32,000 bases of DNA from Candidatus Saccharimonadota bacterium (lineage in GTDB: Bacteria; Patescibacteriota; Gracilibacteria; UBA1369; 2-02-FULL-48-14), in the NCBI GenBank assembly GCA_016699145.1, contig CP064962.1, positions 840,001 through 872,000 on the forward strand, in the 5' to 3' direction. The position numbers and the translations under genes are program-made. Below, in pieces: positions 2,035 through 31,652 of the stretch. The notes beneath the pieces are model-generated. The model was not told the origin of the DNA and searched no databases. It saw nothing but the letters and a program-made list of their open reading frames with translations. Each line of letters opens with the position of its first letter. The first letter of the stretch is position 1.

Positions 2035-3072
2035 TGAATCCGAACACTTGGTAAGATGAGTTCATGAAAAAAACGCTAAGAAGTTCTCACAGCTTTCCAA
2101 AAGTGAGAGGGATGAAATATTCATACTGAAGGGGAAAGGATATTCGCTCAGAGCTATCGCTAAAAGTCTGAAGAGAAGTGTTTCAACTGTTTCAGATGAA
2201 CTCAAACGTAATGAAGTGAATGGCAGCTATAACCCGAAGAAAGCACAGCAGAAAAGCTATGTACGAAGGCGCTCCGCTCGCTTTCAAGGGAAGAAAGTTG
2301 CAATGAACAAGAAATTGAGAGATTTCGTAGAAGAAAAACTAAGAGATGATATTTCTCCAGCCGCTATTTCTGGGAGACTCAAATGCCAAGAGGGAGCTCT
2401 TCCTTTTGCCTCCAAAGACAGTATTTATCGCTTCCTAAAAAGCCCCTATGGAAGAGCTTTGGAGTATGAACGTGAGCAGAAAACAAAACATCGAAGAAAG
2501 AGGCCCAAAGTACTTTCAAAACTTTCGGACAGAACGTTCATAAATGAGCGTCCTAACAGAATAGAAATGAGAGAAGATGTGGGAGACATTGAAGGAGATT
2601 TCATAGTTTCAGGGAAAACGGGAAAGGGTTCACTTTTGGTTGCTGTGGACAGGAAACTAAGAGTTTCATTTCTTGAAAAGATCTTCCCAGTGACGATTGA
2701 AGAAGTTCATGAGGCTTTTTGCGAATCCAAAAACGTTTTCCAGAGCTTCAAAGCATGACTACGGACAATGATATTCTCTTCCAGAAACACAAGGAATTGG
2801 AGAAGCTGCTGGGCATTAAAATCTACTTTTGCCACCCTTATCATTCATGGGAAAAGGGCACAGTGGAAAACACGAATAAAATCATTCGGAAAGATATTCC
2901 TAAAGGCAGTGATATTTCAAAATACAGTAAAGCTTTCATTCAAAGGCTTGAAGAAAAACTCAATCGTAGACCGCTCAAGTGTTTGAATTATCTCACCCCA
3001 AAAGAAGCTCTTTTGGTGCACCGCGAAATCACAAAACTCAAAAAATCCTAATCCATTAAGTGTTCGGATTCA
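2035..3072 (+). mobile_element. IS30-family insertion sequence, decayed (~1038 bp)
   Basis: 15-bp perfect terminal inverted repeats: TGAATCCGAACACTT (2035-2049) and AAGTGTTCGGATTCA (3058-3072). They enclose an IS30-type transposase reading frame. Confidence 0.8.
2064..3051 (+). pseudogene. IS30-family DDE transposase, two frameshifts
   Basis: N-terminal HTH (SERDEIFILKGKGYSLRAIAKSLKRSVSTVSDELKRN) and C-terminal DDE region (TTDNDILF...YFCHPYHSWEKGTVENTNKIIRKDIPKG...LNRRPLKCLNYLTPKE). The ATG at 2064 is out of frame; A7->A8 at 2067-2073 restores it. A second break lies at T5 (2716-2720); T6 restores EAFLRIQKRFPE. Confidence 0.8.
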
Positions 3073-3136
3073 GCCCGTCCAGTGCCGATCAGTGAAGAAG
3101 CTCACAATAACATGTAAGTATAAAATGTCAATGGCG

Positions 3137-4071
3137 TGTAATGGTTCAATAGCTTTGCATCACCCCTGTGCAAAGATATGGACATGGCATACACACAAAA
3201 TCCCCATCTGCCTCGGGTGCGAATGGAGGCAGCAAAGTTAGTTCTGGAAAAAGGCTGGAGCACACGCGAAGTGGCCAGACACACAGGTTTTAACCAAAGC
3301 AGCATTGTGCGGTGGGTGGAAAAGCTCAGAGGCAATAACTATGGCCACACCATTCCCACAGAAAGCTCACGTCCCCATTCGCACCCCAGTGAGCTTTCTG
3401 CAGAGACAGTGCAGAAAGTCATAGAGTACAGACTCAAGTACCAGCGGTGTGCAGAAGTGATTCACTATTTTCTGGAAAGAGATGGCTACGAAGTGAGTCT
3501 TTCCAGTGTGAAGAGAACACTCAAAAGGAACGAGATGACCAAATACAGCAAGTGGAAGAAGTGGCACCAGTATGAGGAAAGACCGCGGCCTGAAAAACCA
3601 GGCATATTGGTGCAAATAGACACGATTGTGGATGGGCCTTATTATGACAGACTTTATGTATACACTATGCTGGACGTGTGCAGCAGATGGGCCTCTGCTA
3701 TGCCGGTGATGAAGATTGGAACCCACGCAAGTTGGGAGTTTATTCAGCACTCACAAGAAGACATGCCCTTTGAACTTAAAATGATCCAGACAGACCATGG
3801 AAGTGAGTTTTCCAAGTGGCTCACTAAAACGCTTGTAGCTAATGAAATTCAGCACAGGCATTCAAGAGTACGAACACCCACAGACAATGCCTATGTGGAG
3901 AGATTCAACAGAACCATCCAGGAGGAATGCCTCTCCCGAGTCCCAAAGACTTTAGAGGCTTACAAAAAAGCAATCCCTGACTTCCTTCACTATTACAATT
4001 TTGAACGTCCTCACATGGGTCTTCACATGCTAACTCCTAACGAAGTGATGCAAAGCTATTGATTACAAAAC
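3137..4071 (+). mobile_element. IS481-family-like insertion sequence, copy 1 (935 bp)
   Basis: Ends TGTAATGG...GATTACAAAAC. 18-bp perfect IR core TCAATAGCTTTGCATCAC (3146-3163) / GTGATGCAAAGCTATTGA (4045-4062). 6-bp direct repeat ATGGCG at 3131-3136 and 4072-4077. Same length and apparently the same sequence as copy 3. Confidence 0.85.
3178..4062 (+). CDS. IS481-like (rve/integrase-core DDE) transposase
   Basis: 294 aa. HTH WSTREVARHTGFNQSSIVRW. DDE candidates in VQIDT, QTDHGSEF, AYVERFNRTIQEE. C-terminal YNFERPHMGL. Protein identical to 24551-25435. Confidence 0.9.
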   Translation: MDMAYTQNPHLPRVRMEAAKLVLEKGWSTREVARHTGFNQSSIVRWVEKLRGNNYGHTIPTESSRPHSHPSELSAETVQKVIEYRLKYQRCAEVIHYFLERDGYEVSLSSVKRTLKRNEMTKYSKWKKWHQYEERPRPEKPGILVQIDTIVDGPYYDRLYVYTMLDVCSRWASAMPVMKIGTHASWEFIQHSQEDMPFELKMIQTDHGSEFSKWLTKTLVANEIQHRHSRVRTPTDNAYVERFNRTIQEECLSRVPKTLEAYKKAIPDFLHYYNFERPHMGLHMLTPNEVMQSY

Positions 4072-4076
4072 ATGGC

Positions 4077-4134
4077 GTGTATGTCATGTCCATATCTTTG
4101 CACAGGGGTGATGCAAAGCTATTGAACCACTACA
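4077..4134 (-). repeat. solo inverted copy of the first 58 nt of the 935-bp IS (left-end fragment)
   Basis: The reverse complement of 4077-4134 matches IS nt 1-58 (3137-3194) with 2 mismatches. No transposase sequence follows it. Confidence 0.8.
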
Positions 4135-4139
4135 TAACA

Positions 4140-4167
4140 TTGACAGAATCAAAATAGGTGATACTGT
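4140..4167 (+). promoter_or_regulatory. candidate sigma70-type promoter of the 4189 gene
   Basis: TTGACA (4140-4145), 16-nt spacer, TACTGT (4162-4167); 21 nt upstream of the ATG at 4189. Confidence 0.4.
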
Positions 4168-4188: not shown

Positions 4189-5454
4189 ATGTCATCAGAA
4201 AAAATCTTGGTAGATGCAATCTCTGATCCAGAAGTGCAAAATCAATTTGTATGTGTAGGTGGAGTGACCTTGATGGTGGAGGATTTTGTAAATATTTGGA
4301 ATGGTGAATTTATTTTTCCTGGTTTGAGTCCAGAAGAACTTTCAATGATTGATTCAATGTATGACCTAGAATCGGTCAATGGTCTTCTTTATTCGATGCC
4401 ACATTCTGTATTTGGTAGTCGTGTTGCTAATACTTGTTTTGAAACTGTGTCACGTTTGAAAAAGTTTCTGGAAATTAGAGGTATGATTGCTCGCTACAAA
4501 AAAACACACGATAGTGGCATTTTAAGTATGCATCGTGTTCTATCAGCCCTTGGAGGAGAAAGGTATCAATTTAGTACTATTGCTGAATTTGTATCTGCTT
4601 TGCCTGGTGTAACGCCTACCGCAGTCGATGCTGCTTTGGTACAAGGTGCTATTTCTGAACATATTGGTTCTTCAGATGTTCAAGTCCACTATATGACCGA
4701 ACGTGGCTCTGAAGCCATAAGCAGTGTGGTTGATGAGTCTAGACATGCCCTTGTGTGTAGTATTTTAGGGGTTAAACCCAAGCTTGTTGATAAGATTCCA
4801 TTATTTATTTTAGAACGGTTGGCCTTTGAAGTTGAACCTTCTGATGATGACATCCGAGAGCTTAGCAGGATGAACAATATTGGTTCACATGGAGTCGTGA
4901 CGGGTATCCAATTAACACAGTGGATAACCTTTTTAGGTGGATTTGGTTTGTTTGCTCATGGCATAACCCAAGTAATGACTGACCTTCCCATGGCTGAAAT
5001 GGAAATTAAAGTAGGTGTGGAGCTCATGTGTCTTATTGGAGTCTATCTTATGCTGTTGTACCCTGCTAATGCACGTAAGATTGCTGTATCTTTAGCTTCT
5101 AGCGATAGTCGTTATTCGAAGATGTATAAAGGTCTAGCTGAAAACATAGGAACACTTAAAGATTCACCATATGGTAAATCAAGATTGGTCTTGCTCAGAG
5201 AAATTGTGCGTGAAGCTTATGGAAAGAAGAATAATACTGAGGCTCTTCGAATTGCTTTGGAAGCCTTTGGCACTGAAGAAGAAATTGAAGGGTTTAATCG
5301 CTTCTCAAATTCTCAAGGTGTAGGTTATGACAGTCCTGAAGGGGTACTTAGTTTGCTGGCAGATTATCAGTCTTATTTGTTAGCTAACGAGAAGTTGTCA
5401 GCGGAGCTTGAAGAGTCTTTACGAAGAGCTACCCCGGGAAGAGTTTCACAGTAG
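4189..5454 (+). CDS. hypothetical two-TM membrane protein, paralogue of 15303-16640
   Basis: 421 aa, AT-rich. Shares with the 445-aa ORF the blocks FVxxGGxxxxVEDxxxxxxG, a ILER motif, two central hydrophobic helices, (L/F)(L/I)VREI(V/I) and C-terminal LLxD(Y/F)xxYLxAxxxLxxEL. Confidence 0.7.
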   Translation: MSSEKILVDAISDPEVQNQFVCVGGVTLMVEDFVNIWNGEFIFPGLSPEELSMIDSMYDLESVNGLLYSMPHSVFGSRVANTCFETVSRLKKFLEIRGMIARYKKTHDSGILSMHRVLSALGGERYQFSTIAEFVSALPGVTPTAVDAALVQGAISEHIGSSDVQVHYMTERGSEAISSVVDESRHALVCSILGVKPKLVDKIPLFILERLAFEVEPSDDDIRELSRMNNIGSHGVVTGIQLTQWITFLGGFGLFAHGITQVMTDLPMAEMEIKVGVELMCLIGVYLMLLYPANARKIAVSLASSDSRYSKMYKGLAENIGTLKDSPYGKSRLVLLREIVREAYGKKNNTEALRIALEAFGTEEEIEGFNRFSNSQGVGYDSPEGVLSLLADYQSYLLANEKLSAELEESLRRATPGRVSQ

Positions 5455-10181: not shown

Positions 10182-10242
10182 GTGAAAAGTGAAAAGCGGC
10201 TAATTGTTACATTGTAACAATTAGAGTTTTTTGAGAATTTGG
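10182..10242 (-). repeat. 61-bp dispersed repeat, copy A, containing a perfect 12-1-12 palindrome
   Basis: The reverse complement matches 31591-31652 at roughly 87% by eye. Palindrome CTAATTGTTACA-t-TGTAACAATTAG at 10200-10224. Confidence 0.75.
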
Positions 10243-10316
10243 AATTAGAGAGCGGTCGCTCACCTATATATTGAATGAGTTCCCACGTCGATGAAGCCCA
10301 CCTCGCCCTCTTCCCT

Positions 10317-10607
10317 TCACTGAGCGGCCAAAATCTTTACTTTCATTTCAAGCACATCCCGTAGCTCAAATTCCACATTTTCAAGGTCATAGTGACTTTG
10401 CAAATTAAGCCAAAACTCAGGACTCGTTTGGAAGTATTTGGCCAAACGCAACGCTGTATCTGGGGTTATAGCCCGTTTCCCATGGATGATTTGACTCACG
10501 CGAATGGGTGGCACATCAATGTCCATGGCTAAACGATACATAGTGAGGCCAAAAGGCTCTAAGAATTCCTCTTTGAGGATTTCACCAGGATGGATTGCAT
10601 GAAGCAT
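10317..10607 (-). CDS. higA: HigA-family antitoxin (XRE HTH)
   Basis: MLHAIHPGEILKEEFLEPFGLTMYRLAMDIDVPPIRVSQIIHGKRAITPDTALRLAKYF is the classic HigA/VapI pattern. First ATG at 10607 (the ORF track starts at TTG 10640). Confidence 0.85.
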   Translation of the reverse strand: MLHAIHPGEILKEEFLEPFGLTMYRLAMDIDVPPIRVSQIIHGKRAITPDTALRLAKYFQTSPEFWLNLQSHYDLENVEFELRDVLEMKVKILAAQ

Positions 10608-10623
10608 GGGTATAAAGTGATAG

Positions 10624-10905
10624 TTAGTGATAATCAACAATCTCTAGATCATAAGCATTCCCCTCTCTCCAGCGGAAACAAATTCTCCATTGATCGTTGA
10701 TACGAATACTATGTTGATCGCCGCGCTCTCCTTTCAGTTTTTCCAATCGATTTCCAGGAGGCACCCGCAGGTCATTGATATCCACCGCCGCATGTATCAT
10801 CACGAGTTTTCTGAGGGCAATTCTTTGGATGGATTGCGGTATTTTTTTAGATCCCATCCGCTCAAATATTTTTTCTACTTCTTTGTCCTTGAAGGATTGG
10901 ATCAT
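10624..10905 (-). CDS. higB: HigB / RelE-superfamily toxin (plasmid maintenance system killer type)
   Basis: 93 aa. IQSFKDKEVEKIF...PPGNRLEKLKGERGDQHSIRINDQWRICFRW, typical HigB. Toxin-first gene order with higA downstream. Confidence 0.85.
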   Translation of the reverse strand: MIQSFKDKEVEKIFERMGSKKIPQSIQRIALRKLVMIHAAVDINDLRVPPGNRLEKLKGERGDQHSIRINDQWRICFRWREGNAYDLEIVDYH

Positions 10906-10917
10906 AAGGGTAACGAG

Positions 10918-10956
10918 ACGCGTTAATATCGTAACGCGTTAGTGACTGCGCGTCAA
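10918..10956 (-). promoter_or_regulatory. candidate higBA promoter with two TAACGCGT operator-like boxes
   Basis: Minus strand: TTGACG (10951-10956), 17-nt spacer, TACGAT (10928-10933). TAACGCGT (palindromic ACGCGT core) at 10934-10941 and 10918-10925 flanks the -10. Confidence 0.4.
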
Positions 10957-10961
10957 TACCT

Positions 10962-11796
10962 TGTAATGGTTCAATAGCTTTGCATCACCCCTGTGCAAAG
11001 ATATGGACATGGCATACACACAAAATCCCCATCTGCCTCGGGTGCGAATGGAGGCAGCAAAGTTAGTTCTGGAAAAGGCTGGAGCACACGCGAAGTGGCC
11101 AGACACACAGGTTTTAACCAAAGCAGCATTGTGCGTCAGAAAGTCATAGAGTACAGACTCAAGTACCAGCGGTGTGCAGAAGTGATTCACTATTTTCTGG
11201 AAAGAGATGGCTACGAAGTGAGTCTTTCCAGTGTGAAGAGAACACTCAAAAGGAACGAGATGACCAAATACAGCAAGTGGAAGAAGTGGCACCAGTATGA
11301 GGAAAGACCGCGGCCTGAAAAACCAGGCATATTGGTGCAAATAGACACGATTGTGGATGGGCCTTATTATGACAGACTTTATGTATACACTATGCTGGAC
11401 GTGTGCAGCAGATGGGCCTCTGCTATGCCGGTGATGAAGATTGGAACCCACGCAAGTTGGGAGTTTATTCAGCACTCACAAGAAGACATGCCCTTTGAAC
11501 TTAAAATGATCCAGACAGACCATGGAAGTGAGTTTTCCAAGTGGCTCACTAAAACGCTTGTAGCTAATGAAATTCAGCACAGGCATTCAAGAGTACGAAC
11601 ACCCACAGACAATGCCTATGTGGAGAGATTCAACAGAACCATCCAGGAGGAATGCCTCTCCCGAGTCCCAAAGACTTTAGAGGCTTACAAAAAAGCAATC
11701 CCTGACTTCCTTCACTATTACAATTTTGAACGTCCTCACATGGGTCTTCACATGCTAACTCCTAACGAAGTGATGCAAAGCTATTGATTACAAAAC
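10962..11796 (+). mobile_element. IS481-family-like insertion sequence, copy 2 (835 bp, internally deleted)
   Basis: Same termini as copies 1 and 3. Carries an A5->A4 deletion (11073-11076) and a net 99-bp deletion (junction ~11135). Flanks ATACCT / ATGGAG show no TSD. Confidence 0.85.
10993..11787 (+). pseudogene. degenerate IS481-like transposase (original start out of frame, 33-aa in-frame deletion behind the HTH)
   Basis: The 264-aa ORF matches the 294-aa transposase from GWSTREVARH onward. It lacks WVEKLRGNNYGHTIPTESSRPHSHPSELSAETV, and its first 28 aa come from a shifted frame. Confidence 0.75.
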
Positions 11797-11812
11797 ATGG
11801 AGCCACGATGTT

Positions 11813-11880
11813 TTCAACTTATTTTATGTTTGTGTTTGGGTTTTTCCGCAGCGGGAAGCAGTCCCGCCAAACATTTGCAC
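11813..11880 (+). repeat. 68-bp direct repeat R1 (upstream of yefM-yoeB)
   Basis: TTCAACTTATTTTATGTTTGT (21 nt) is identical to 12471-12491. Overall roughly 75% identity to 12471-12538 by eye. Confidence 0.7.
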
Positions 11881-11896
11881 TAAATAGGTTTTTATA

Positions 11897-11936
11897 TTGA
11901 TCTACGGGTCGCAGACATGTACAATAAAGCTGTACA
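11897..11936 (+). promoter_or_regulatory. candidate yefM-yoeB promoter/operator with paired TGTACA boxes
   Basis: TTGATC (11897-11902), 17-nt spacer, TACAAT (11920-11925). TGTACA at 11918-11923 and 11931-11936 (13 bp centre to centre), inside ATGTACA-n7-TGTACAT. Confidence 0.5.
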
Positions 11937-11948
11937 TATATTCCACTC

Positions 11949-12203
11949 ATGAATTCAACCACTACTTATACTAAGGCTCGAAAGAATTTAAAAACTGTGT
12001 TTGATGCTGTTTGTAGTGATCATGGGCCTTGCTTAGTCGAACGCCGTGAGGGCGGAAACATCGTACTTGTTTCCGAAGAGGACTTTAACTCACTTGAAGA
12101 GACAGCTTACCTTCTTTCCTCCCCTTCAAACCTTAAACATATCGCCACCTCTTTGAAGGAACTGGAAAACGGGAAGACTGTTGAATTTGATCTTCCTGCC
12201 TAA
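11949..12203 (+). CDS. yefM: Phd/YefM-family antitoxin
   Basis: 84 aa. YTKARKNLKTVFDAV...PCLVERREGGNIVLVSEEDFNSLEETAYLLSSPSN is the canonical YefM pattern. Its stop overlaps the toxin ATG by 1 nt. Confidence 0.9.
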   Translation: MNSTTTYTKARKNLKTVFDAVCSDHGPCLVERREGGNIVLVSEEDFNSLEETAYLLSSPSNLKHIATSLKELENGKTVEFDLPA

Positions 12204-12460
12204 TGAAAAAAGTCCAATTCACAAAATCTGCTTATACTGATTTTGAGTATTGGAAAGCCAAAGACCCTAAAGTGCATTCCAAAATCATCCATCTTCTCAA
12301 GGATATTCAGGTGAGTCCTTTTGTAGGGCTTGGAAAGCCAGAAGCTTTAAAATATTCTTTGAAGGATTGCTGGTCTCGTCGCATTAACAGGGAGCATCGA
12401 CTGGTTTATAAAGTCAGCGGACAATTGATCTCCGTCATATCTTGTCATTATCACTATTGA
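12203..12460 (+). CDS. yoeB: YoeB/Txe-family toxin
   Basis: 85 aa. FTKSAYTDFEYW...KIIHLLKDIQVSPFVGLGKPEALKYSLKDCWSRRINREHRLVYKV...ISCHYHY is the canonical YoeB pattern. Confidence 0.9.
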   Translation: MKKVQFTKSAYTDFEYWKAKDPKVHSKIIHLLKDIQVSPFVGLGKPEALKYSLKDCWSRRINREHRLVYKVSGQLISVISCHYHY

Positions 12461-12470
12461 TTGGCCTGCT

Positions 12471-12538
12471 TTCAACTTATTTTATGTTTGTATTTTGTTT
12501 TTGTCGCAGTGGGAAGCGGTATCCATTCATTTGCATCA
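12471..12538 (+). repeat. 68-bp direct repeat R2 (downstream of yefM-yoeB)
   Basis: See R1. Starts 10 nt after the yoeB stop. Confidence 0.7.
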
Positions 12539-18136: not shown

Positions 18137-19015
18137 ATGCAAAGCCCCAATCAAAGCCTTTCTCGTCGTGAAGCCCTCGTCGGACTGCTCGCTACCTTCG
18201 CGATGGCCAGTGCTCCCAAATCAGCCGCTGCTGCCATTTCAAAACAAATCGACGAAACGCGAGAACAGCTCACGCTCCCTACTTTTATTAAGTACGAAAA
18301 TCCTGCATTTGGGCGGGCCGAGCACGAGGCCTTCCATAAGGAATTGGAAGCACGCTACGGCTTTGCCAAAGATCCCCATCTCACCCGCTGGACTTCCAAC
18401 CCCGAGCAGGTTTATGTGAACAAAAACGCAGGGGAAAGCATCCACATCGTCGGAGTCAACCTTAAGGAAAACTATGCCGAGATGGTTTGGGTCTTGGCAC
18501 CCGCTTACATCAACGCCGAAGGCCAAAGAGTCCTTGCTCACGTGCCTTTTGAACACATTCACAGCAACCAAGAAGAGCAATTTGAAAAACTCTGTGGAGA
18601 GGTCAACGCTCAAGTGAACGGCGTCATTCTTCAAGCAGAGAAGACAGATTTCTTCAGCGCCTTGCCCGAAGACGACCACATCGCCTGGAACTCAGGGGCC
18701 ACCCCTTTGGCCATGCGAGTGCGTTACTACCCAGCCTTTGGTCGAGATGGAGAACGGGCCTTGATGACCTATTGGGGGCTCGTGAATGAGCCAGAACGCA
18801 CCACCGATACCGGCGCCCCTAAAAACTTCGCTCTACTCGGTGCTTTAAACGCCCACCTTGGCCCTCAAGCCCTCGCAACAGGCATGCCAGCCTTTCTACC
18901 TAAAGTGGCCCATCCTTTCTTAGTGAACCCTTTGAATCGAAAAGAAGTATGCGATTTATACAGAGAACTGACCGGCGAAGAGCATCCTGAAGCAATTGAA
19001 GCACGTGAACCTTGA
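18137..19015 (+). CDS. hypothetical exported protein with Tat-like signal
   Basis: 292 aa. N-terminus SRREALVGLLATFAMASAPKSAAA (twin-arginine-like). No other motif recognised. Confidence 0.6.
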   Translation: MQSPNQSLSRREALVGLLATFAMASAPKSAAAAISKQIDETREQLTLPTFIKYENPAFGRAEHEAFHKELEARYGFAKDPHLTRWTSNPEQVYVNKNAGESIHIVGVNLKENYAEMVWVLAPAYINAEGQRVLAHVPFEHIHSNQEEQFEKLCGEVNAQVNGVILQAEKTDFFSALPEDDHIAWNSGATPLAMRVRYYPAFGRDGERALMTYWGLVNEPERTTDTGAPKNFALLGALNAHLGPQALATGMPAFLPKVAHPFLVNPLNRKEVCDLYRELTGEEHPEAIEAREP

Positions 19016-19139
19016 AATCGCAGTTTCAATTCAGGAGTTAGGAAAGCCGTTCGTTTTATTTTGCAAAACTTGATCTGTGGATTCCTCCCCGGGGAGGAAT
19101 TTTAACCCGTAAAAAACAGGAGATTGGCTTATTGAAGCC
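18988..19139 (-). repeat. ~150-bp hairpin-bearing dispersed repeat, copy X
   Basis: The reverse complement aligns to 27427-27580 at roughly 80-85% by eye. Overlaps the last ~28 nt of the 18137 CDS. Confidence 0.7.
19081..19103 (+). terminator. GC-rich palindrome / likely terminator inside repeat X
   Basis: ATTCCTCCCC|GGGGAGGAAT (perfect 20-nt palindrome) followed by TTT. Confidence 0.5.
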
Positions 19140-19264
19140 ATAGAGTAAATTTCAAGATTCACAGCCAAAGCCGCTACGTAGTTTCACGAATTTCAAGTAC
19201 AGCTCAGGGGAAAAGGAAGAGGGAGTAGAGTAGAGATACTTTACTTCTTCACCCCAACTCCCTC

Positions 19265-20344
19265 ATGGAACAATATAACATGACGAAAGGCATTCGTGGA
19301 CTGAGAAGATTACTTCGGCAGTTTAACGAAGCTACTTTAAAGCCCTGGCAGAGAGACGTACTTAGAGAAAGAATCCTTATTTTGGATTGGTACGACCATA
19401 ATGGAAAGAATAAAGCCAAGACTGCCAGGGCTTTTGAAACTTCTAGAAGCCACGTACAAAAGCTGGTGAAGGCCAGAAAGGAAGAAGGACTGGGTGGTCT
19501 TATTCCGAAAATAACAGGACCCAATAACAAACGTGGATTTAATCTCACCAGTGAAGAGAAACAAGAGATTGAACGCTATGCAAGGATGTTTCCAGATTGG
19601 AGCCACAAGAAGCTTCACATGTTTCTTCACCAGCACAGCATTTCCACCTTGTACCGCTATTTGGCAGCAAAAGGATTACTGGTTCGTAATCGCTGCCCCG
19701 GGTTTCACAAGAAACCAAAACCTAGGTCTGCTTGGAAAGTCCAAAGAAAGAAACTCCCCAAGGACTACCAAATCTTAAAACCTGGAGACTTGGTAGTCCT
19801 AGATTCCATCGTTGAGTTTGTGGACAGCGCCTTCAACAAACTGTACTTCATTACCTGTGTGGATGTGGCCACCAGGATAGGTTTTGCACTCGTAACCAAG
19901 CACCACAGTTCCAAGGCGGCCAAAGCTTTGCTGGAAAAGATGGAAGAAGTGCTCCAGACCAAGATTAAAGCTGTTTTAACAGACAACGGCAGTGAGTTCC
20001 TGGCGTACTTCCATAAAGCCTGCCAGCAGCAAGGGATTGAGCACTTCTTCACTCGCCCCAGAACACCAAAAGATAATGCGATTTGTGAGCGATTCAACCT
20101 TACTTTGCAACAACACCTCTACTGGAGAGTGGACTTAACCAGTCCCATTTACAAGATTAATGAGGTGCTCGCGGATTGGCTCGTGGAGTATAATTGCCTT
20201 CGTCCACATGAATCTCTCAATATGAGACCTCCAGTTGCTCACTACTTTCATCTATTCTACTCCCCTCGCCCCATCCCCGAGGTGTACTTGAAACTATGGA
20301 ACCGGACAGCCGCTTTACATAAAACAAAAATATGGTTATACTGA
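19265..20344 (+). CDS. IS481-like (rve/integrase-core DDE) transposase
   Basis: 359 aa. VVLDS, LTDNGSEF, PRTPKDNAICERFNLTLQ, YNCLRPHESL. Same family as the 294-aa transposase but divergent. Confidence 0.85.
   Translation: MEQYNMTKGIRGLRRLLRQFNEATLKPWQRDVLRERILILDWYDHNGKNKAKTARAFETSRSHVQKLVKARKEEGLGGLIPKITGPNNKRGFNLTSEEKQEIERYARMFPDWSHKKLHMFLHQHSISTLYRYLAAKGLLVRNRCPGFHKKPKPRSAWKVQRKKLPKDYQILKPGDLVVLDSIVEFVDSAFNKLYFITCVDVATRIGFALVTKHHSSKAAKALLEKMEEVLQTKIKAVLTDNGSEFLAYFHKACQQQGIEHFFTRPRTPKDNAICERFNLTLQQHLYWRVDLTSPIYKINEVLADWLVEYNCLRPHESLNMRPPVAHYFHLFYSPRPIPEVYLKLWNRTAALHKTKIWLY
20315..20342 (+). promoter_or_regulatory. candidate outward/hybrid promoter at the right end of the second IS
   Basis: TTACAT (20315-20320), 16-nt spacer, TATACT (20337-20342); 18 nt upstream of the ATG at 20361. 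Confidence 0.35.
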
Positions 20345-22951: not shown

Positions 22952-24442
22952 TTAACCCCTCTTCCTTCGGTTCACCACACCCGCTCCAGCCAAGGCCATG
23001 AGGCCAAGCAGCAGCATTTCAGGACCGGCTTCGGGCAAGCTCACTGTGCTCATCACACCTTCGGATTCATTTCCATTTTCATCCACCGCCGTCACCTTGA
23101 AGGTGTAGCTTTCACCGGGGGTCAAATCGTCCACTTCATATTCAGTTTCATCTGCATCAATGCTGATCGCGTCGTCGAAAGTCTCCCCTCCATCCATGCT
23201 TTGGTAAAGAAAGTACTTGGCCAAATCCCCCGCACTGTCCACACTGGCATCCCAAGTGAGAAGCACCGTGTCTTCAGCCGTGATTTTAGAGAGCAAGTCC
23301 GTGATGTCTTCAGGAGCAATCACATCTTCAAGATCGAGAGTTTGTGCGGTAAAGTCCACCGTGCGAGCCTCTTCAGGCAAGGCATCTCCCGCTTCATTGA
23401 GCAAGGTTTCATCTAGAGTCAGCACGTAGTCGTAACCCGGCTCCATGTCTTCGGTGACCAGGGTCACTTCTGTAAGATCGTCTTCATTCACGCTCAGGGC
23501 CAACACCTCCAATTCTTCGGAGGCATCTTCGGCCATTTGAATGGTAAAGGCACTGACTTCAGGAGCAGTCACTTTTTGACTGAAGTGCAAAACCACTTCA
23601 TTGCTGCCACTGGCTTCAATTTCTTCCACCTCAAAATCTTCATCCACGTCGGCTTCAGTGGAACTGGCATTGGCAGTGCCGTCGGGTTCGTCATTTTCTA
23701 CACGTTCTAAAGCGCTGCCGGTGAATAAACCGGTGTCAGAAGTTCCGCTGCTCACAGGGTTGCCGGCCAAATCTTCCACCTGAATTCCAGCCGTGAGCGT
23801 GTACTCGGCTCCGGCAATTTGCGTGTCCGTGACCAAGAACACCGTGCTGGGATCTTCTTCAGAAACATACGCGTCAAGCACATCTACAAAAGCGCCATCG
23901 CTGGCTTCCAAAGAGAAGGCGCTGGTGGGGTCTAAAGGCAAAGAAACCGCTTCCGAAAATTCCACTTGCACCAAAGCGTTGGCCACCGCTTCTGCATCCG
24001 TAACCATGGGCCCGGTAAAGTCGCCCACATCTGATTCGGCAGGAGTCACCTCCACTTCATTTGAATACACTTCCGATTCGTTTCCATCTTCATCATAGGC
24101 TTTGACCGCAAAATAGTAGGTCATTTCATTGGTGAGATTTTCCATCACATAAGTGGTGGTGTCCCCCACATCGGTGCTGCCTAAATTATAAGAACCGCGC
24201 TCTTCATAAGAGTCGAGTCCGGTATAAAGGGTATAGCCATCCACTCCTCCATCATCTGTGGCGGCATCCCAGCTGAGGGTCACTTGTCCATCGCCCGGAT
24301 AAGCTTGCAGATTTTCCACTTCACTTGGAGCAGAATCCGCGGAGTCAGTGAGCACTTCAGCTTGAGCCAAAGGTGCACAAAGCAGACTGAGCAGGGCTAA
24401 GCTGCCTAGAGTTCGCGCAAGATTGCGAGAAAGATTTGCCAT
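22952..24442 (-). CDS. secreted FN3-domain protein with PEP-CTERM-like C-terminal sorting signal
   Basis: 496 aa. Signal peptide ...LCAPLAQA|EV. FN3-like modules at both ends (VTLSWDAATDDGGVDGYTLY...YYFAVKAYDEDGNES; VLLTWDASVDS...YTFKVTAVDENGNES). C-terminus LPEAGPEMLLLGLMALAGAGVVNRRKRG. Confidence 0.7.
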   Translation of the reverse strand: MANLSRNLARTLGSLALLSLLCAPLAQAEVLTDSADSAPSEVENLQAYPGDGQVTLSWDAATDDGGVDGYTLYTGLDSYEERGSYNLGSTDVGDTTTYVMENLTNEMTYYFAVKAYDEDGNESEVYSNEVEVTPAESDVGDFTGPMVTDAEAVANALVQVEFSEAVSLPLDPTSAFSLEASDGAFVDVLDAYVSEEDPSTVFLVTDTQIAGAEYTLTAGIQVEDLAGNPVSSGTSDTGLFTGSALERVENDEPDGTANASSTEADVDEDFEVEEIEASGSNEVVLHFSQKVTAPEVSAFTIQMAEDASEELEVLALSVNEDDLTEVTLVTEDMEPGYDYVLTLDETLLNEAGDALPEEARTVDFTAQTLDLEDVIAPEDITDLLSKITAEDTVLLTWDASVDSAGDLAKYFLYQSMDGGETFDDAISIDADETEYEVDDLTPGESYTFKVTAVDENGNESEGVMSTVSLPEAGPEMLLLGLMALAGAGVVNRRKRG

Positions 24443-24475: not shown

Positions 24476-24504
24476 ATTATAGCAAAAATTCCATGCAAAA
24501 TCAA
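24476..24504 (-). promoter_or_regulatory. candidate sigma70-type promoter of the FN3 gene
   Basis: Minus strand: TTGATT (24499-24504), 17-nt spacer, TATAAT (24476-24481); 33 nt upstream of the ATG at 24442. Confidence 0.5.
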
Positions 24505-24509
24505 ATGGA

Positions 24510-25444
24510 TGTAATGGTTCAATAGCTTTGCATCACCCCTGTGCAAAGATATGGACATGGCATACACACAAAATCCCCATCTGCCTCGGGTGCGAATGGA
24601 GGCAGCAAAGTTAGTTCTGGAAAAAGGCTGGAGCACACGCGAAGTGGCCAGACACACAGGTTTTAACCAAAGCAGCATTGTGCGGTGGGTGGAAAAGCTC
24701 AGAGGCAATAACTATGGCCACACCATTCCCACAGAAAGCTCACGTCCCCATTCGCACCCCAGTGAGCTTTCTGCAGAGACAGTGCAGAAAGTCATAGAGT
24801 ACAGACTCAAGTACCAGCGGTGTGCAGAAGTGATTCACTATTTTCTGGAAAGAGATGGCTACGAAGTGAGTCTTTCCAGTGTGAAGAGAACACTCAAAAG
24901 GAACGAGATGACCAAATACAGCAAGTGGAAGAAGTGGCACCAGTATGAGGAAAGACCGCGGCCTGAAAAACCAGGCATATTGGTGCAAATAGACACGATT
25001 GTGGATGGGCCTTATTATGACAGACTTTATGTATACACTATGCTGGACGTGTGCAGCAGATGGGCCTCTGCTATGCCGGTGATGAAGATTGGAACCCACG
25101 CAAGTTGGGAGTTTATTCAGCACTCACAAGAAGACATGCCCTTTGAACTTAAAATGATCCAGACAGACCATGGAAGTGAGTTTTCCAAGTGGCTCACTAA
25201 AACGCTTGTAGCTAATGAAATTCAGCACAGGCATTCAAGAGTACGAACACCCACAGACAATGCCTATGTGGAGAGATTCAACAGAACCATCCAGGAGGAA
25301 TGCCTCTCCCGAGTCCCAAAGACTTTAGAGGCTTACAAAAAAGCAATCCCTGACTTCCTTCACTATTACAATTTTGAACGTCCTCACATGGGTCTTCACA
25401 TGCTAACTCCTAACGAAGTGATGCAAAGCTATTGATTACAAAAC
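24510..25444 (+). mobile_element. IS481-family-like insertion sequence, copy 3 (935 bp)
   Basis: Same termini and length as copy 1. 6-bp direct repeat AATGGA at 24504-24509 and 25445-25450. Confidence 0.9.
24551..25435 (+). CDS. IS481-like (rve/integrase-core DDE) transposase
   Basis: 294 aa, identical to 3178-4062. Confidence 0.9.
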   Translation: MDMAYTQNPHLPRVRMEAAKLVLEKGWSTREVARHTGFNQSSIVRWVEKLRGNNYGHTIPTESSRPHSHPSELSAETVQKVIEYRLKYQRCAEVIHYFLERDGYEVSLSSVKRTLKRNEMTKYSKWKKWHQYEERPRPEKPGILVQIDTIVDGPYYDRLYVYTMLDVCSRWASAMPVMKIGTHASWEFIQHSQEDMPFELKMIQTDHGSEFSKWLTKTLVANEIQHRHSRVRTPTDNAYVERFNRTIQEECLSRVPKTLEAYKKAIPDFLHYYNFERPHMGLHMLTPNEVMQSY

Positions 25445-25445
25445 A

Positions 25446-25467
25446 ATGGAGGCCCGTGAGCCCCCAT
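25446..25467 (-). terminator. terminator hairpin of the 25516 gene (original T tract displaced by IS copy 3)
   Basis: Minus strand: ATGGGGGC-tcacgg-GCCTCCAT (one mismatch). It is now followed by the IS-end sequence TGTTTTGT. In the reconstructed empty site it was followed by TTGATTTTG. Confidence 0.5.
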
Positions 25468-25515
25468 TGAAGTTTTACTTACCGTTAATCTGAATTCTAA
25501 AATCTATTGTTCGGA

Positions 25516-27426: not shown

Positions 27427-27580
27427 GGCTTGAATAAGCCAATTTCCTGTTTTTTACAGGTTGGAAATTCCTCCCCGGGGAGGATTCCCCAGATTAAGTT
27501 TTACAAAATCAAACGAATGTTGTTTCCTGACTTCTGAAGTGCAACTGAGGTTTTAAGATTCACGTCAAGCCTCAATTCCC
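27427..27580 (+). repeat. ~150-bp hairpin-bearing dispersed repeat, copy Y
   Basis: Aligns to the reverse complement of 18988-19139. Contains TCCTCCCC|GGGGAGGA and CCTGT-ttttt-ACAGG hairpins. Ends at the stop codon of the 27581 gene. Confidence 0.7.
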
Positions 27581-28228
27581 TCAACGGCCATCCCCAGCTG
27601 GTCTGGGAGGGGCAGGCATAAATTGAATGGGAGGGGTATTATCCTCCTCTTCAACCGGCAACTCTGGAGCAGGAGCAGGAGCCACAGGAGGAGTCACCGA
27701 AACCTCTGGAGGGGCCACGGGCACCTCTGCAGCTGGAACTTCTGAAGCGGGAGCTGCAGCCGGAGCCACAGGGATGACGGGTCCATCCCATGGGAAAATA
27801 TTGACCTCAAAAGAATGGCCACCTTCTCGTAGGACGGTTAAAACTCCATCTTTTACACTGAGTGAATCGCCAGAAATAATCAAATTAATATTTTCAGCCG
27901 GCTGTTTAAGACGAGCTTCACGCGACATATTCACATACGCAGCTTTAAGCAGTGCGCCGGTAGCAAACGCATGAGGCATCTTTTCTTTCAAAACAGTTAA
28001 GATTCCCCCTGAATCCTTGGCGGTGACAGGATAAGAATCCATTTGCATGGACGTACGTTCAGGGTACTTGATTGTTTGCTTTAAAGCATCCAACTCCTTC
28101 GCAAACTTTTCTGTTTGTTCTCTGGCATGTTGAGTCTCAGCTCCTCCTACTGCCTCAATATAATCTCCAGCTTTAAAAAGTCGATGAGGCTCATTGGAAG
28201 CCAGAAGACATGTGCGAAGCGAAAGCAT
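27581..28228 (-). CDS. hypothetical protein with Pro/Ala/Val-rich C-terminal tail
   Basis: 215-aa ORF, 12 nt downstream of the 28241 gene. Tail PVIPVAPAAAPASEVPAAEVPVAPPEVSVTPPVAPAPAPELP. Confidence 0.55.
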   Translation of the reverse strand: MLSLRTCLLASNEPHRLFKAGDYIEAVGGAETQHAREQTEKFAKELDALKQTIKYPERTSMQMDSYPVTAKDSGGILTVLKEKMPHAFATGALLKAAYVNMSREARLKQPAENINLIISGDSLSVKDGVLTVLREGGHSFEVNIFPWDGPVIPVAPAAAPASEVPAAEVPVAPPEVSVTPPVAPAPAPELPVEEEDNTPPIQFMPAPPRPAGDGR

Positions 28229-31268: not shown

Positions 31269-31601
31269 ATGAACAGAATAGAAGGTGCTTTCGTTACCCT
31301 TGCTATCGCTGCTGCTGCTGCAGTCACTTATGAAAAGTGCAGTGAAGGCGAAGTAGAAATGGTGATAAGAACAGAAGGAGGCGATATACTCAGAACGGTA
31401 GAGGGTGGAGGGACCGCCTTTTATGAAAGAGGGCAAAATCCTTGTGTTTGGGTAATGCCAGGGCAACACGAACCTGCAGGTGAAATAATTCCTTTACCAC
31501 CCCACCTGGAAGGTGAACCCAAGTGTAAACTAATACTGGCAATTGACGAGCCTGGAGGAACAAAGACAGACGAGCAAATACTCTCGACGCCCAAATCTTG
31601 A
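31269..31601 (+). CDS. small hypothetical protein with N-terminal hydrophobic anchor
   Basis: 110-aa ORF with ATG start. AFVTLAIAAAAAV segment. No motif recognised. Confidence 0.45.
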   Translation: MNRIEGAFVTLAIAAAAAVTYEKCSEGEVEMVIRTEGGDILRTVEGGGTAFYERGQNPCVWVMPGQHEPAGEIIPLPPHLEGEPKCKLILAIDEPGGTKTDEQILSTPKS

Positions 31602-31652
31602 AAAAACTCCAATTGTTACATTGTAACAATGAGCCGCTTTTCACTTTTTCCA
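31591..31652 (+). repeat. 61-bp dispersed repeat, copy B, containing a 9-1-9 palindrome
   Basis: Matches the reverse complement of 10182-10242. Palindrome ATTGTTACA-t-TGTAACAAT at 31612-31630. Overlaps the stop of the 31269 ORF. Confidence 0.75.

Follow-up and report, generated by a model that had tools for sequence, protein, structure and literature searches.

Copies of an IS481-like element in the window

The window analysed here, a 32,000-nucleotide stretch of contig CP064962.1 from a Candidatus Saccharimonadota bacterium, contains repeats that we identify from their sequence as copies of an IS481-like insertion sequence (IS), 936 bp long and with one DDE transposase gene. The copies, their target-site duplications (TSDs), the promoter-like sites that adjoin them and the neighbouring genes are as follows.

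3104..3131, minus strand: promoter-like site adjoining copy 1 (TTGACA 3126-3131, N16, TG-extended TATTGT 3104-3109)
3132..3136 (left) and 4073-4077 (right), no strand: TSD TGGCG of copy 1, read from the junctions
3137..4072, plus strand: IS copy 1, intact, 936 bp, 100% identical to copy 3; transposase 3178-4062, 294 aa
4078..4134, minus strand: 57-bp solo left end that remains from an older, inverted copy, 2 mismatches relative to copy 1
4135..4167, plus strand: flank of the solo end (TAACA 4135-4139, TTGACA 4140-4145, N16, TACTGT 4162-4167), read from the junction
10317-10640, minus strand: higA (Pfam/NCBIfam)
10624-10905, minus strand: higB (Pfam/NCBIfam)
10928..10956, minus strand: promoter-like site of higBA (TTGACG 10951-10956, N17, TACGAT 10928-10933)
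10962..11797, plus strand: IS copy 2, defective, 836 bp, internal deletions of 1 nt and 99 nt; flanks TACCT / TGGAG, no TSD
22952-24442, minus strand: FN3-domain gene (Pfam)
24476..24504, minus strand: promoter-like site of the FN3-domain gene (TTGATT 24499-24504, N17, TG-extended TATAAT 24476-24481)
24510..25445, plus strand: IS copy 3, intact, matching copy 1 at 936/936 positions; TSD ATGGA 24505-24509 and 25446-25450
25444..25469, minus strand: terminator-like hairpin belonging to the 615-aa gene upstream, overlapping the right TSD copy of copy 3

The intact copies 1 and 3 have termini TGTAATGG...TTACAAAACA and measure 936 bp, not the 935 bp given in an earlier note on this DNA. As in the IS481 family, the element is of the ~1 kb class with a single ORF, a short TSD and 5'-TGT ... 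ACA-3' termini, here within imperfect inverted repeats of ~28 bp (left repeat, IRL, tGTaATGGTTCAATAgCTT..AcCAC; right repeat, IRR, reverse-complemented, TGTTTTCTAaTCAATAGCTT..AcCAC). The 294-aa DDE (rve-fold) transposase carries an N-terminal HTH and is made without a programmed frameshift; Pfam matches were to rve, rve_3, HTH_23, HTH_32 and, weakly, LZ_Tnp_IS481, giving an HTH + HTH + rve architecture in which the domain search found no extra domain for a partner. Its catalytic residues D148, D206 and E241 are invariant or nearly so in 31 homologues, with 35 residues from the second D to the E. By far the best NCBIfam family is IS481 (NF033577, 196.9 bits, against 104 bits for IS3); as the curated NF033577 cutoff of 224 bits is not reached, we call the element IS481-like and place it in a divergent clade. 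No solved homologue was found by sequence, exact-protein look-ups of the transposase, the FN3 protein and HigB gave no match, and the plasmid database held no close relative, with a single match at 29%.

The earlier note had described a TTGA(C/T)N hexamer lying 5 bp outward from every left terminus, and this is what we read at all four junctions: cgcca then TTGACA at copy 1 (hexamer 3126-3131, minus), aggta then TTGACG at copy 2 (10951-10956, minus), tccat then TTGATT at copy 3 (24499-24504, minus), and the solo-end flank listed above. TTGA is expected at one fixed offset with a chance of ~0.006 at this base composition, and at 4/4 junctions with ~1.5e-9 (2.5e-7 if three are independent), before post-hoc correction. 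A properly spaced -10 with a gene behind it, claimed for three of the hexamers, is found at copies 2 and 3 but not convincingly at the solo end, where a 421-aa gene starts at 4189 downstream of the hexamer but the -10, TACTGT, is weak (3/6 matches, preceded by TGA) and falls under the threshold of our consensus scan; the scan calls the other three of the four sites (3131->3104, 10956->10928 and 24504->24476). The site at copy 1 reads leftward into an IS30 remnant; the IS30 assignment was borne out, and there was no Pfam or NCBIfam match for the leftward ORF that had been labelled amidinotransferase-like.

TSDs are present at copies 1 and 3, as had been proposed, but they are of 5 bp rather than 6: the final A of the IS, set against a target that reads TCAA, gives the impression of a 6-mer with a leading A. 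The two identical copies have unrelated flanks and different TSDs. At copy 3 the hairpin overlaps the right TSD and its T-run is now provided by the right end of the IS, which shows that the IS inserted into the little space separating a terminator from the promoter that follows. Two other repeats were considered and set aside: a 99-nt inverted repeat reaching past the IS ends shares, outside the IS, CATTGACA alone, with flanks that are non-homologous by eye; and a repeat found around 19.05 kb / 27.45 kb is no end of the second IS481-like element but consists of the duplicated 3' end of a gene and a palindrome.

Register and polarity across the family

By transposase homology we fetched 100 loci from unrelated metagenomes and genomes, all of the data being genome and metagenome assemblies, and obtained 85 left flanks which are independent, in that no pair is >71% alike beyond the hexamer. 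The transposases of these relatives are 47-66% identical, and the MAGs carry the labels Doudnabacteria, Saccharibacteria, Paceibacterota, Azambacteria, Yanofskybacteria and Peregrinibacteria; the clade is widespread among CPR/Patescibacteria. The spacing seen in the window holds family-wide: TTGA lies at offset 5 in 64 of the 85 left flanks (binomial p ~4e-122), at 6 in seven and at 4 in one, against 0/66 right flanks with TTGA at that offset. Register, orientation, TSD geometry and promoter-like flanks are common to the family.

The earlier note had also proposed a logo of flanks oriented on the left end. Built from the relatives, it reads T87 T93 G84 A85 C81 A64 (%) at outward positions 6-11, then TG at 26-27 and TATAAT at 29-34, amounting to a sigma-70-like TTGACA, 17 bp, TGnTATAAT; the right-flank logo is flat. 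The motif is missing in about 13 of the 85 external flanks (for example L041, L080, L028 and L014), and also in the close relative L110. Another close relative, L101 (91% aa), has the TSD TCTGC and TTGACA-N16-TATAAT, and the closer relatives L102, L103-106 and L108 likewise fit the pattern.

A TSD could be verified in 23/68 loci (about a third of those with both flanks), being 5 bp in 17-20 of them and 6 bp in three; relatives with CGT...ACG tips (L005, L040, L062) fix the size as 5 bp, and in loci with a 6-bp TSD (L046, L057) the hexamer still adjoins it. Flanks are swapped in L049-L053, so chimeric contigs or inter-copy recombination are common. In all 23 verified insertions TCAA adjoins the TSD and the hexamer lies directly against it on the outside, so the hexamer is target DNA and not part of the IS.

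This geometry bears on the reading that the hexamer, or a whole promoter, is carried by the mobile element, either because its left end reaches further out or as a promoter of the IS that faces outward. The ends of many IS do contain outward-facing -35 boxes, the Bordetella IS481 has the outward promoter Pout (PMC6161684), and the right inverted repeat of the present IS includes TTGA(T/C)T; we nevertheless regard this reading as hardly credible, since the hexamer is always outside the TSD, the 5 bp between tip and hexamer equal the right-hand TSD and differ between the identical copies 1 and 3, and from one site to another there is no relation in spacer, -10 or downstream genes. We also looked for a hybrid promoter made of the right-repeat TTGA(T/C)T and a -10 in the flank, and rejected it, as -10-like hexamers show no peak at hybrid-promoter distance on the right flank.

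Promoter-like character of the flanks and the choice of site

The flanking sites have the sigma-70-type arrangement of a -35 TTGACA, a 16-18 bp spacer and a -10 TATAAT, often TG-extended, and we predict that they are host promoters. An in-register -10 is found in 65 of the 85 left flanks (76%; 53 of these at 17 bp), whereas of the TTGAC[AT] hexamers elsewhere in these loci 26/124 (21%) have one (odds ratio 12, p 9e-16), and -10-like hexamers peak sharply at offset 28 (50/89, with every other offset <=15). In 39/61 left flanks an ATG-ORF that points outward begins no more than 150 nt from the tip, and in L102-L108 the called genes are divergent from the transposase gene. Insertion at about -41/-40 would keep the -35 and -10 hexamers in place; as TTGACA is the -35 consensus and the core hexamers are spared, surviving copies appear to sit just upstream of host promoters, divergent from them. 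Such promoter-edge siting may amount to a ‘safe haven’ in gene-dense genomes. Stable hairpins (z < -2) are mildly more frequent in right flanks than in left (13% versus 6%), which we do not take to make a hairpin or terminator the true target; the enrichment is what terminators situated by chance upstream of promoters would give.

The earlier note had offered two explanations for the pattern, targeting of a TTGA motif or promoter and survival of insertions that spare the promoter, and the data show that both contribute. Survivorship on its own, in which insertion is near-random and only copies sparing core promoters and genes persist, is very improbable. Purifying selection does generally enrich IS in intergenic DNA (PMC13548323), CPR genomes are gene-dense, and of the 35 TTGAC[AT] hexamers in the window only 5 are followed by a -10; but under such selection insertions upstream of the -35 could lie anywhere and face either way, whereas what is seen, in loci proved independent, is one offset, right flanks without the hexamer and invariable TSD adjacency. 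Single-base register, left-end-only polarity and TSD adjacency together require that the site is chosen by the transposition machinery, not by survivorship alone; and survivorship or RNA polymerase is needed as well, because an in-register -10 is so much commoner beside the IS than at other hexamers in the same loci.

We therefore lean towards a preference for TTGAC(A/T) that is built into the clade, is orientation-specific and probably sites copies upstream of host promoters. In the mechanism that we propose, the element would integrate with its TSD directly against 5'-TTGAC(A/T)-3' on the left-end side, the transposase gene facing away. From standard DDE chemistry, the right-end 3'-OH would attack the bond next to the hexamer, and the left-end cut would fall 5 bp, sometimes 6, from the hexamer-side cut. 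We favour the transposase itself as the reader of the hexamer, probably via an N-terminal HTH module, with purifying selection then presumably clearing insertions at the numerous intragenic hexamers. Intragenic insertions did not separate the models: when empty sites were reconstructed and reading frames scanned, no loci other than L046 and L041 looked intragenic, and these two only at most.

Direct reading is favoured by -35 hexamers that are far nearer consensus beside the IS than in ordinary promoters: among promoters with an exact TATAAT, all six -35 positions match in 12/22 that are IS-adjacent and in 0/33 generic TATAAT+ORF promoters of the same loci, a small and noisy control set, and C stands at hexamer position 5 in 77-81% beside the IS against 21% in the generic set. 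Counting against it, 10/15 sites whose hexamers are degenerate (such as TAGACT, TTTACT and TTGCAT) retain a -10 in register, which fits recognition of the promoter as such, or strong selection. Nor is reading of the target by the domain that binds the inverted repeats evident, as the binding motif TCAATAGCTT has only TCAA in common with the target.

The main competitor to direct reading is integration directed by RNA polymerase or sigma, with the transpososome drawn to the holoenzyme, or to its distortion of the DNA, at strong promoters; insertion would then occur on the upstream border of sigma region 4 (about -41/-36), and the hexamer would be conserved via high-occupancy promoters with a consensus -35, not through reading by the transposase. 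We consider this possible, if on the unlikely side, and its more specific form, recruitment not by the hexamer itself but by promoter-bound holoenzyme (through sigma region 4 or a bend near -38), seems to us doubtful. It would account for flanks that are complete promoters, most with a TG-extended -10 at 17 bp, and for the -10 elements at degenerate -35-like sites. An asymmetric target beside the TSD is, moreover, the geometry of elements guided by a bound protein, or by the site of one, such as Tn7 with TnsD. ISAba32 at the XerC arm has the same geometry, with the mechanism left open by its authors (bioRxiv 10.1101/2022.12.17.520857). Against polymerase recruitment, the hexamer is much stricter than in generic promoters, above all at A4 and C5; TTGAC occurs with no recognisable -10 at 15 sites; the geometry would have the strand-transfer point touch the first base of the hexamer, the place of sigma region 4; and the 294-aa transposase has no spare domain. 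Mimicry of sigma region 4 by the transposase HTH was likewise unsupported, the match to Sigma70_r4_2 being sub-threshold (E 0.029, 14.5 bits; cutoff 25.7) and hhalign against E. coli sigma-70 region 4 giving a probability of 0.3%.

Known site-selective elements and what the target means

The closest precedent appears to be the ISAba32/ISAjo2 group of the IS1202 family, the ‘dif-site hunters’: DDE elements with TGT...ACA ends and a 5-bp TSD, inserted in a single orientation with IRL at TSD-length distance (5, sometimes 6 bp) from the XerC arm, for which a ‘safe haven’ role has been proposed and whose transposase is distantly related to IS481/IS3 (PMC10132070; bioRxiv 10.1101/2022.12.17.520857). 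IS1202 has been placed within or near IS481 (PMC10045372). The present IS likewise keeps IRL at TSD length from its site, with TTGA at offset 5 or 6 in 71/85 flanks, but its target is TTGACA-N17-TATAAT rather than the XerC arm of dif/pdif. It also differs in its 294-aa transposase, compared with 441-457 aa and extra C-terminal domains in ISAba32/ISAjo2, and in its CPR hosts, compared with Acinetobacter and other cultured bacteria.

IS481 proper, of Bordetella, uses an NCTAGN target, as the earlier note had remarked, with a 6-bp TSD. Unlike it, the present IS shows no CTAG in its TSDs, and conservation lies outside them. Its TSD of 5, sometimes 6, bp is inside the IS481 family range of 2-15 bp, the majority being 6 bp (PMC10045372). 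One IS481-family element is reported at REP sequences in Pseudomonas fluorescens SBW25 (PMC11708052). Our search of the openly accessible literature found neither an IS481-family member reported at -35 boxes nor any IS that targets the -35 box or TTGACA.

Among eukaryotic retroelements, protein tethering places Ty3 where Pol III starts transcription, Ty1 in the DNA preceding tRNA genes and Tf1 at Pol II promoters. The present IS resembles them in its integrase-fold enzyme, fixed position relative to promoters, avoidance of coding sequence and safe-haven logic; in contrast to their tethering to transcription factors or polymerase, tethering is here a rival reading only and a 6-bp motif may suffice. 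Among bacterial elements, Tn7 reaches attTn7 via TnsD, IS1397/ISKpn1 and IS110-type elements insert in REP/BIME, and IS30 and IS911 insert beside IR-like sequences. These devices (a target protein, a guide RNA, palindromic or IR-like sites) differ from the hexamer of the present IS. Other site-selective bacterial elements limit host damage (PMC1525189, PMC11187229). Hybrid-promoter IS, and IS5/IS1 at bgl, fucAO and similar operons, can alter expression by inserting just upstream of a -10 or gene (PMC9330008, PMC11894529); they supply a -35 or change DNA structure and are seen through selection for activation, whereas the address of the present IS is a pre-existing host -35 outside the TSD.

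The near-universal bacterial -35 hexamer is a new type of address among site-selective DDE transposons, with single-base register and fixed polarity achieved by a minimal 294-aa enzyme. How a simple, presumably symmetric transpososome reads an asymmetric site beside its cuts, a puzzle also posed by ISAba32 and dif, is now a testable question. Were polymerase recruitment the true mechanism, the copies would mark occupied promoters in uncultured CPR bacteria, and the element would be a prokaryotic equivalent of Ty3/Ty1/Tf1: a transposon tethered to the transcription machinery, the first from bacteria to our knowledge. More speculatively, as insertion swaps out the UP-element region and puts a transposase-binding inverted repeat at -41, promoter activity and transposition may interact.

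A safe-haven strategy suits streamlined, gene-dense genomes and, the target being essentially universal in bacteria, the element could move between phyla. If its specificity transfers to other hosts, the transposase could be used to place cargo directly ahead of promoters and always facing the same way. In these mostly uncultivable organisms every copy of the IS provides a free annotation of a predicted promoter, and the logo indicates that such CPR promoters follow TTGACA-17-TGnTATAAT, many of them driving genes which look leaderless.

Copies of the IS and their left flanks in the window

The four left termini belong to copies of an IS481-like insertion sequence (IS) with the ends TGTAATGG...TTACAAAACA.

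Parts of the IS in the window
3137-4072, copy 1, 936 bp
4078-4134, solo left end, inverted, 57 bp
10962-11797, copy 2, defective, 836 bp, with deletions of 1 nt and 99 nt
24510-25445, copy 3, 936/936 identical to copy 1
3178-4062, transposase ORF, the sole ORF of the IS, 294 aa, with HTH_23/HTH_32 and rve/rve_3 domains

The top family for the transposase is IS481 (NF033577; 197 bits, below the 224-bit cutoff; runner-up IS3, 104 bits), and its catalytic triad, D148/D206/E241, is kept in 31 homologues. The earlier note had claimed that, reading outward, N5 and then TTGA(C/T)N, acting as the -35 box of an outward promoter, follow each left terminus; we find N5 and TTGA(C/T)N at 4/4, just where they had been placed. 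A consensus scan independently calls promoter-like sites at three of them (3131->3104, 10956->10928 and 24504->24476), but the -10 of the solo end (TACTGT after TGA) is sub-threshold. Two readings needed correction: the target-site duplication (TSD) is 5 bp rather than 6 bp (TGGCG at copy 1, ATGGA at copy 3), and the IS measures 936 bp instead of 935 bp. With A as the last base of the IS and TCAA in the target, both lengths were ambiguous; relatives tipped CGT...ACG resolve the TSD as 5 bp.

Within 4073-4134, the inner breakpoint of the solo left end falls exactly at the right TSD copy of copy 1. No IS sequence lies to the left of copy 1, so an older truncated copy stood there before copy 1 arrived, at a distance of exactly 5 bp from another TTGACA of opposite orientation. 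Coincidence, an IS-mediated deletion and a single compound event are all candidates for the matching breakpoint.

Other features of the window
2216-3051, pseudogene of an IS30-family transposase, in two frames (NF033563 at 88 and 102 bits)
10185-10261 and 31572-31648, pair of 77-nt inverted repeats (82% complementary), each in an intergenic region, far apart
11809-11862 and 12467-12520, 54-nt direct repeats, 85% identical, bracketing yefM/yoeB
11949-12460, yefM/yoeB toxin-antitoxin (TA) pair
18990-19140 and 27427-27590, inverted duplication of ~190 nt
19265-20344, second, unrelated IS481-like transposase, 359 aa (NF033577, 169 bits; rve, HTH_28, HTH_32)
25444-25469, minus strand, terminator-like hairpin of a 615-aa gene, overlapping the TSD of copy 3

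The IS30-family pseudogene sits between the promoter-like site 3131->3104 and the leftward ORFs 1218-1868 and 1753-2013, which have no family matches, so that this predicted promoter is cut off from its gene. The yefM/yoeB segment (11809-12520) lies directly right of defective copy 2, with higBA opposite, placing one IS between two TA systems. No definable ends were found for the second IS481-like element. The ~190-nt duplication was rejected as an IS end; it contains 3' ends from two paralogous genes, a TTCCTCCCCGGGGAGGAA palindrome and an A-rich hairpin. The 77-nt repeats share the conserved core AAAAGTGAAAAGCGGCT.ATTGTTAC..TGTAACAATT.

Left flanks of relatives outside the window

The exact transposase has no match in the public gene index; it belongs to a large family, with 7,780 proteins at E<=1e-20, most of them on metagenome contigs of about IS size. 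We took 20 loci from GTDB genomes (transposases 47-64% identical to that of the window) and 80 further loci from metagenome contigs (50-66%). Most of the GTDB loci are labelled as MAGs of CPR (Patescibacteria) bacteria (Doudna-, Sacchari-, Paceibacterota, Azam-, Yanofsky-, Peregrinibacteria); the labels of a few others are Gammaproteobacteria, Pseudomonadota or Archaeoglobales. IS tips were placed via the conserved inverted-repeat core, and duplicate removal left 85 external left flanks, mutually unrelated beyond the motif (pairwise identity never >71%).

Counted outward, positions 1-5 of the left-flank logo are uninformative, 6-11 read T87 T93 G84 A85 C81 A64 (%), TG follows at 26-27 (49% and 46%) and TATAAT at 29-34 (65/70/49/53/56/64%); that of the right flanks is flat. 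TTGA starts at offset 5 in 64 of the 85 left flanks, at offset 6 in 7 and at offset 4 in 1, and at those offsets in 0/66 right flanks (left-flank binomial p ~4e-122). Hexamers resembling a -10 peak at offset 28 (50/89, with <=15 at every other offset), and an in-register -10 accompanies 65/85 sites (53 at 17 bp) against 26/124 other TTGAC[AT] hexamers of the same loci (odds ratio 12, p 9e-16). An outward ATG-ORF starts <=150 nt from the tip in 39/61 flanks, and where genes are called on a contig, the transposase gene and its neighbour point away from each other. Closer relatives fit the pattern: L101 (91% identical; TSD TCTGC, flank gcaga|TTGACA-N16-TATAAT), L102 (79%), L103-106 (66%) and L108 (76%); L110 (75%), with a degenerate tip, is an exception. 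These flanks confirm and strongly extend the arrangement claimed in the earlier note, and they support its reading of left ends at -35-type hexamers of outward, predicted promoters.

Many IS-adjacent host ORFs start 42-47 nt from the tip, at about the predicted transcription start. In the family's own transposase genes, a conserved ATG-NNN-ATG at the start lies 41 nt from the tip (left ends of L001-L110; window 3137-3186), and the -10-like box only a few nt upstream of the start suggests an mRNA that is leaderless or has a very short leader.

The hexamer as target and what reads it

Copies 1 and 3, themselves identical, differ in N5, each N5 being its own right-hand TSD, and their flanks are unrelated; judged from sequence, the hexamer is target DNA and not part of the IS. 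The TSD was verifiable in 23/68 two-flank loci, and TCAA directly adjoins it in 23/23. The hexamer still abuts the TSD where this is 6 bp (L046, L057), which argues for a fixed cut next to the hexamer and a variable one on the far side. Many two-flank loci lack a TSD. In L049-L053 (JGI Ga0210xxx contigs, sibling samples) left and right IS flanks recur in different pairings, and the TSD GCAAA joins the L049/L050 left flank with the L051/L052 right flank; chimeric assembly or inter-copy recombination is therefore behind at least part of the missing TSDs. Once reconstructed, the empty sites fall in intergenic DNA, either separating divergent genes or closely following the terminator of the upstream gene. 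The hairpin of the 615-aa gene now takes its T-run from the IS right end (TGTTTTGT), so that insertion of copy 3 may have preserved termination; hairpin enrichment in family right flanks is only mild.

The earlier note had offered two explanations, target choice during transposition and survival only of insertions sparing the core promoter. Survivorship alone cannot yield register, polarity and TSD adjacency, and is ruled out by them; TTGAC(A/T) must serve to position the transposition machinery. Targeting of the -35 hexamer is, as far as genome and metagenome assemblies can tell, almost certainly built into this IS family. By standard DDE chemistry, the right-end 3'-OH would attack the strand TGTCAA^N directly after the hexamer and the left-end 3'-OH the promoter strand 5 bp upstream, and gap repair would leave the left end adjoining the -35 box, at ~-41.

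We lean towards the transposase reading the hexamer directly, with selection in addition. Among exact-TATAAT promoters a perfect -35 occurs in 12/22 IS-adjacent cases against 0/33 generic TATAAT+ORF cases of the same loci, and C stands at hexamer position 5 in ~80% of IS-adjacent against ~21% of generic promoters; this excess, 15 sites with TTGAC and no recognisable -10, and the minimal 294-aa protein favour direct reading. That promoter-bound RNA polymerase (RNAP) helps to choose the site seems less likely, although 10/15 sites with degenerate hexamers retain an in-register -10, and a -10 accompanies only 5/35 TTGAC[AT] hexamers of the window while the IS copies occupy promoter-type sites; both observations point to RNAP or to strong selection. 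The transposase HTH does not specifically resemble sigma region 4, no solved structure was found among transposase homologues, and the inverted-repeat core (TCAATAGCTT) and the target have only TCAA in common.

Relation to other site-hunting elements

IS481 proper targets NCTAGN. An IS481-family element of Pseudomonas fluorescens SBW25 is found at REP sequences (PMC11708052). Among known elements, the ISAba32/ISAjo2 group comes closest. It belongs to the IS1202 family, whose transposases are related to IS481 (PMC10045372), and has TGT...ACA ends, a 5-bp TSD and a left inverted repeat always 5 bp from the XerC arm of dif/pdif, in a single orientation (PMC10132070; bioRxiv 10.1101/2022.12.17.520857). 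The geometry is the same as in the window IS, whereas address, transposase size and hosts differ. Hybrid-promoter IS elements bring their own -35, whereas here it was already in place, beyond the TSD. Promoter-proximal integration is also known from Ty3, Ty1 and Tf1, which the window IS resembles in logic. In the literature searched (ISfinder/TnPedia and subscription journals lay outside its scope) no IS was reported to target -35 boxes. Site-hunting DDE insertion sequences were already known; the -35 hexamer as address is what sets this family apart.
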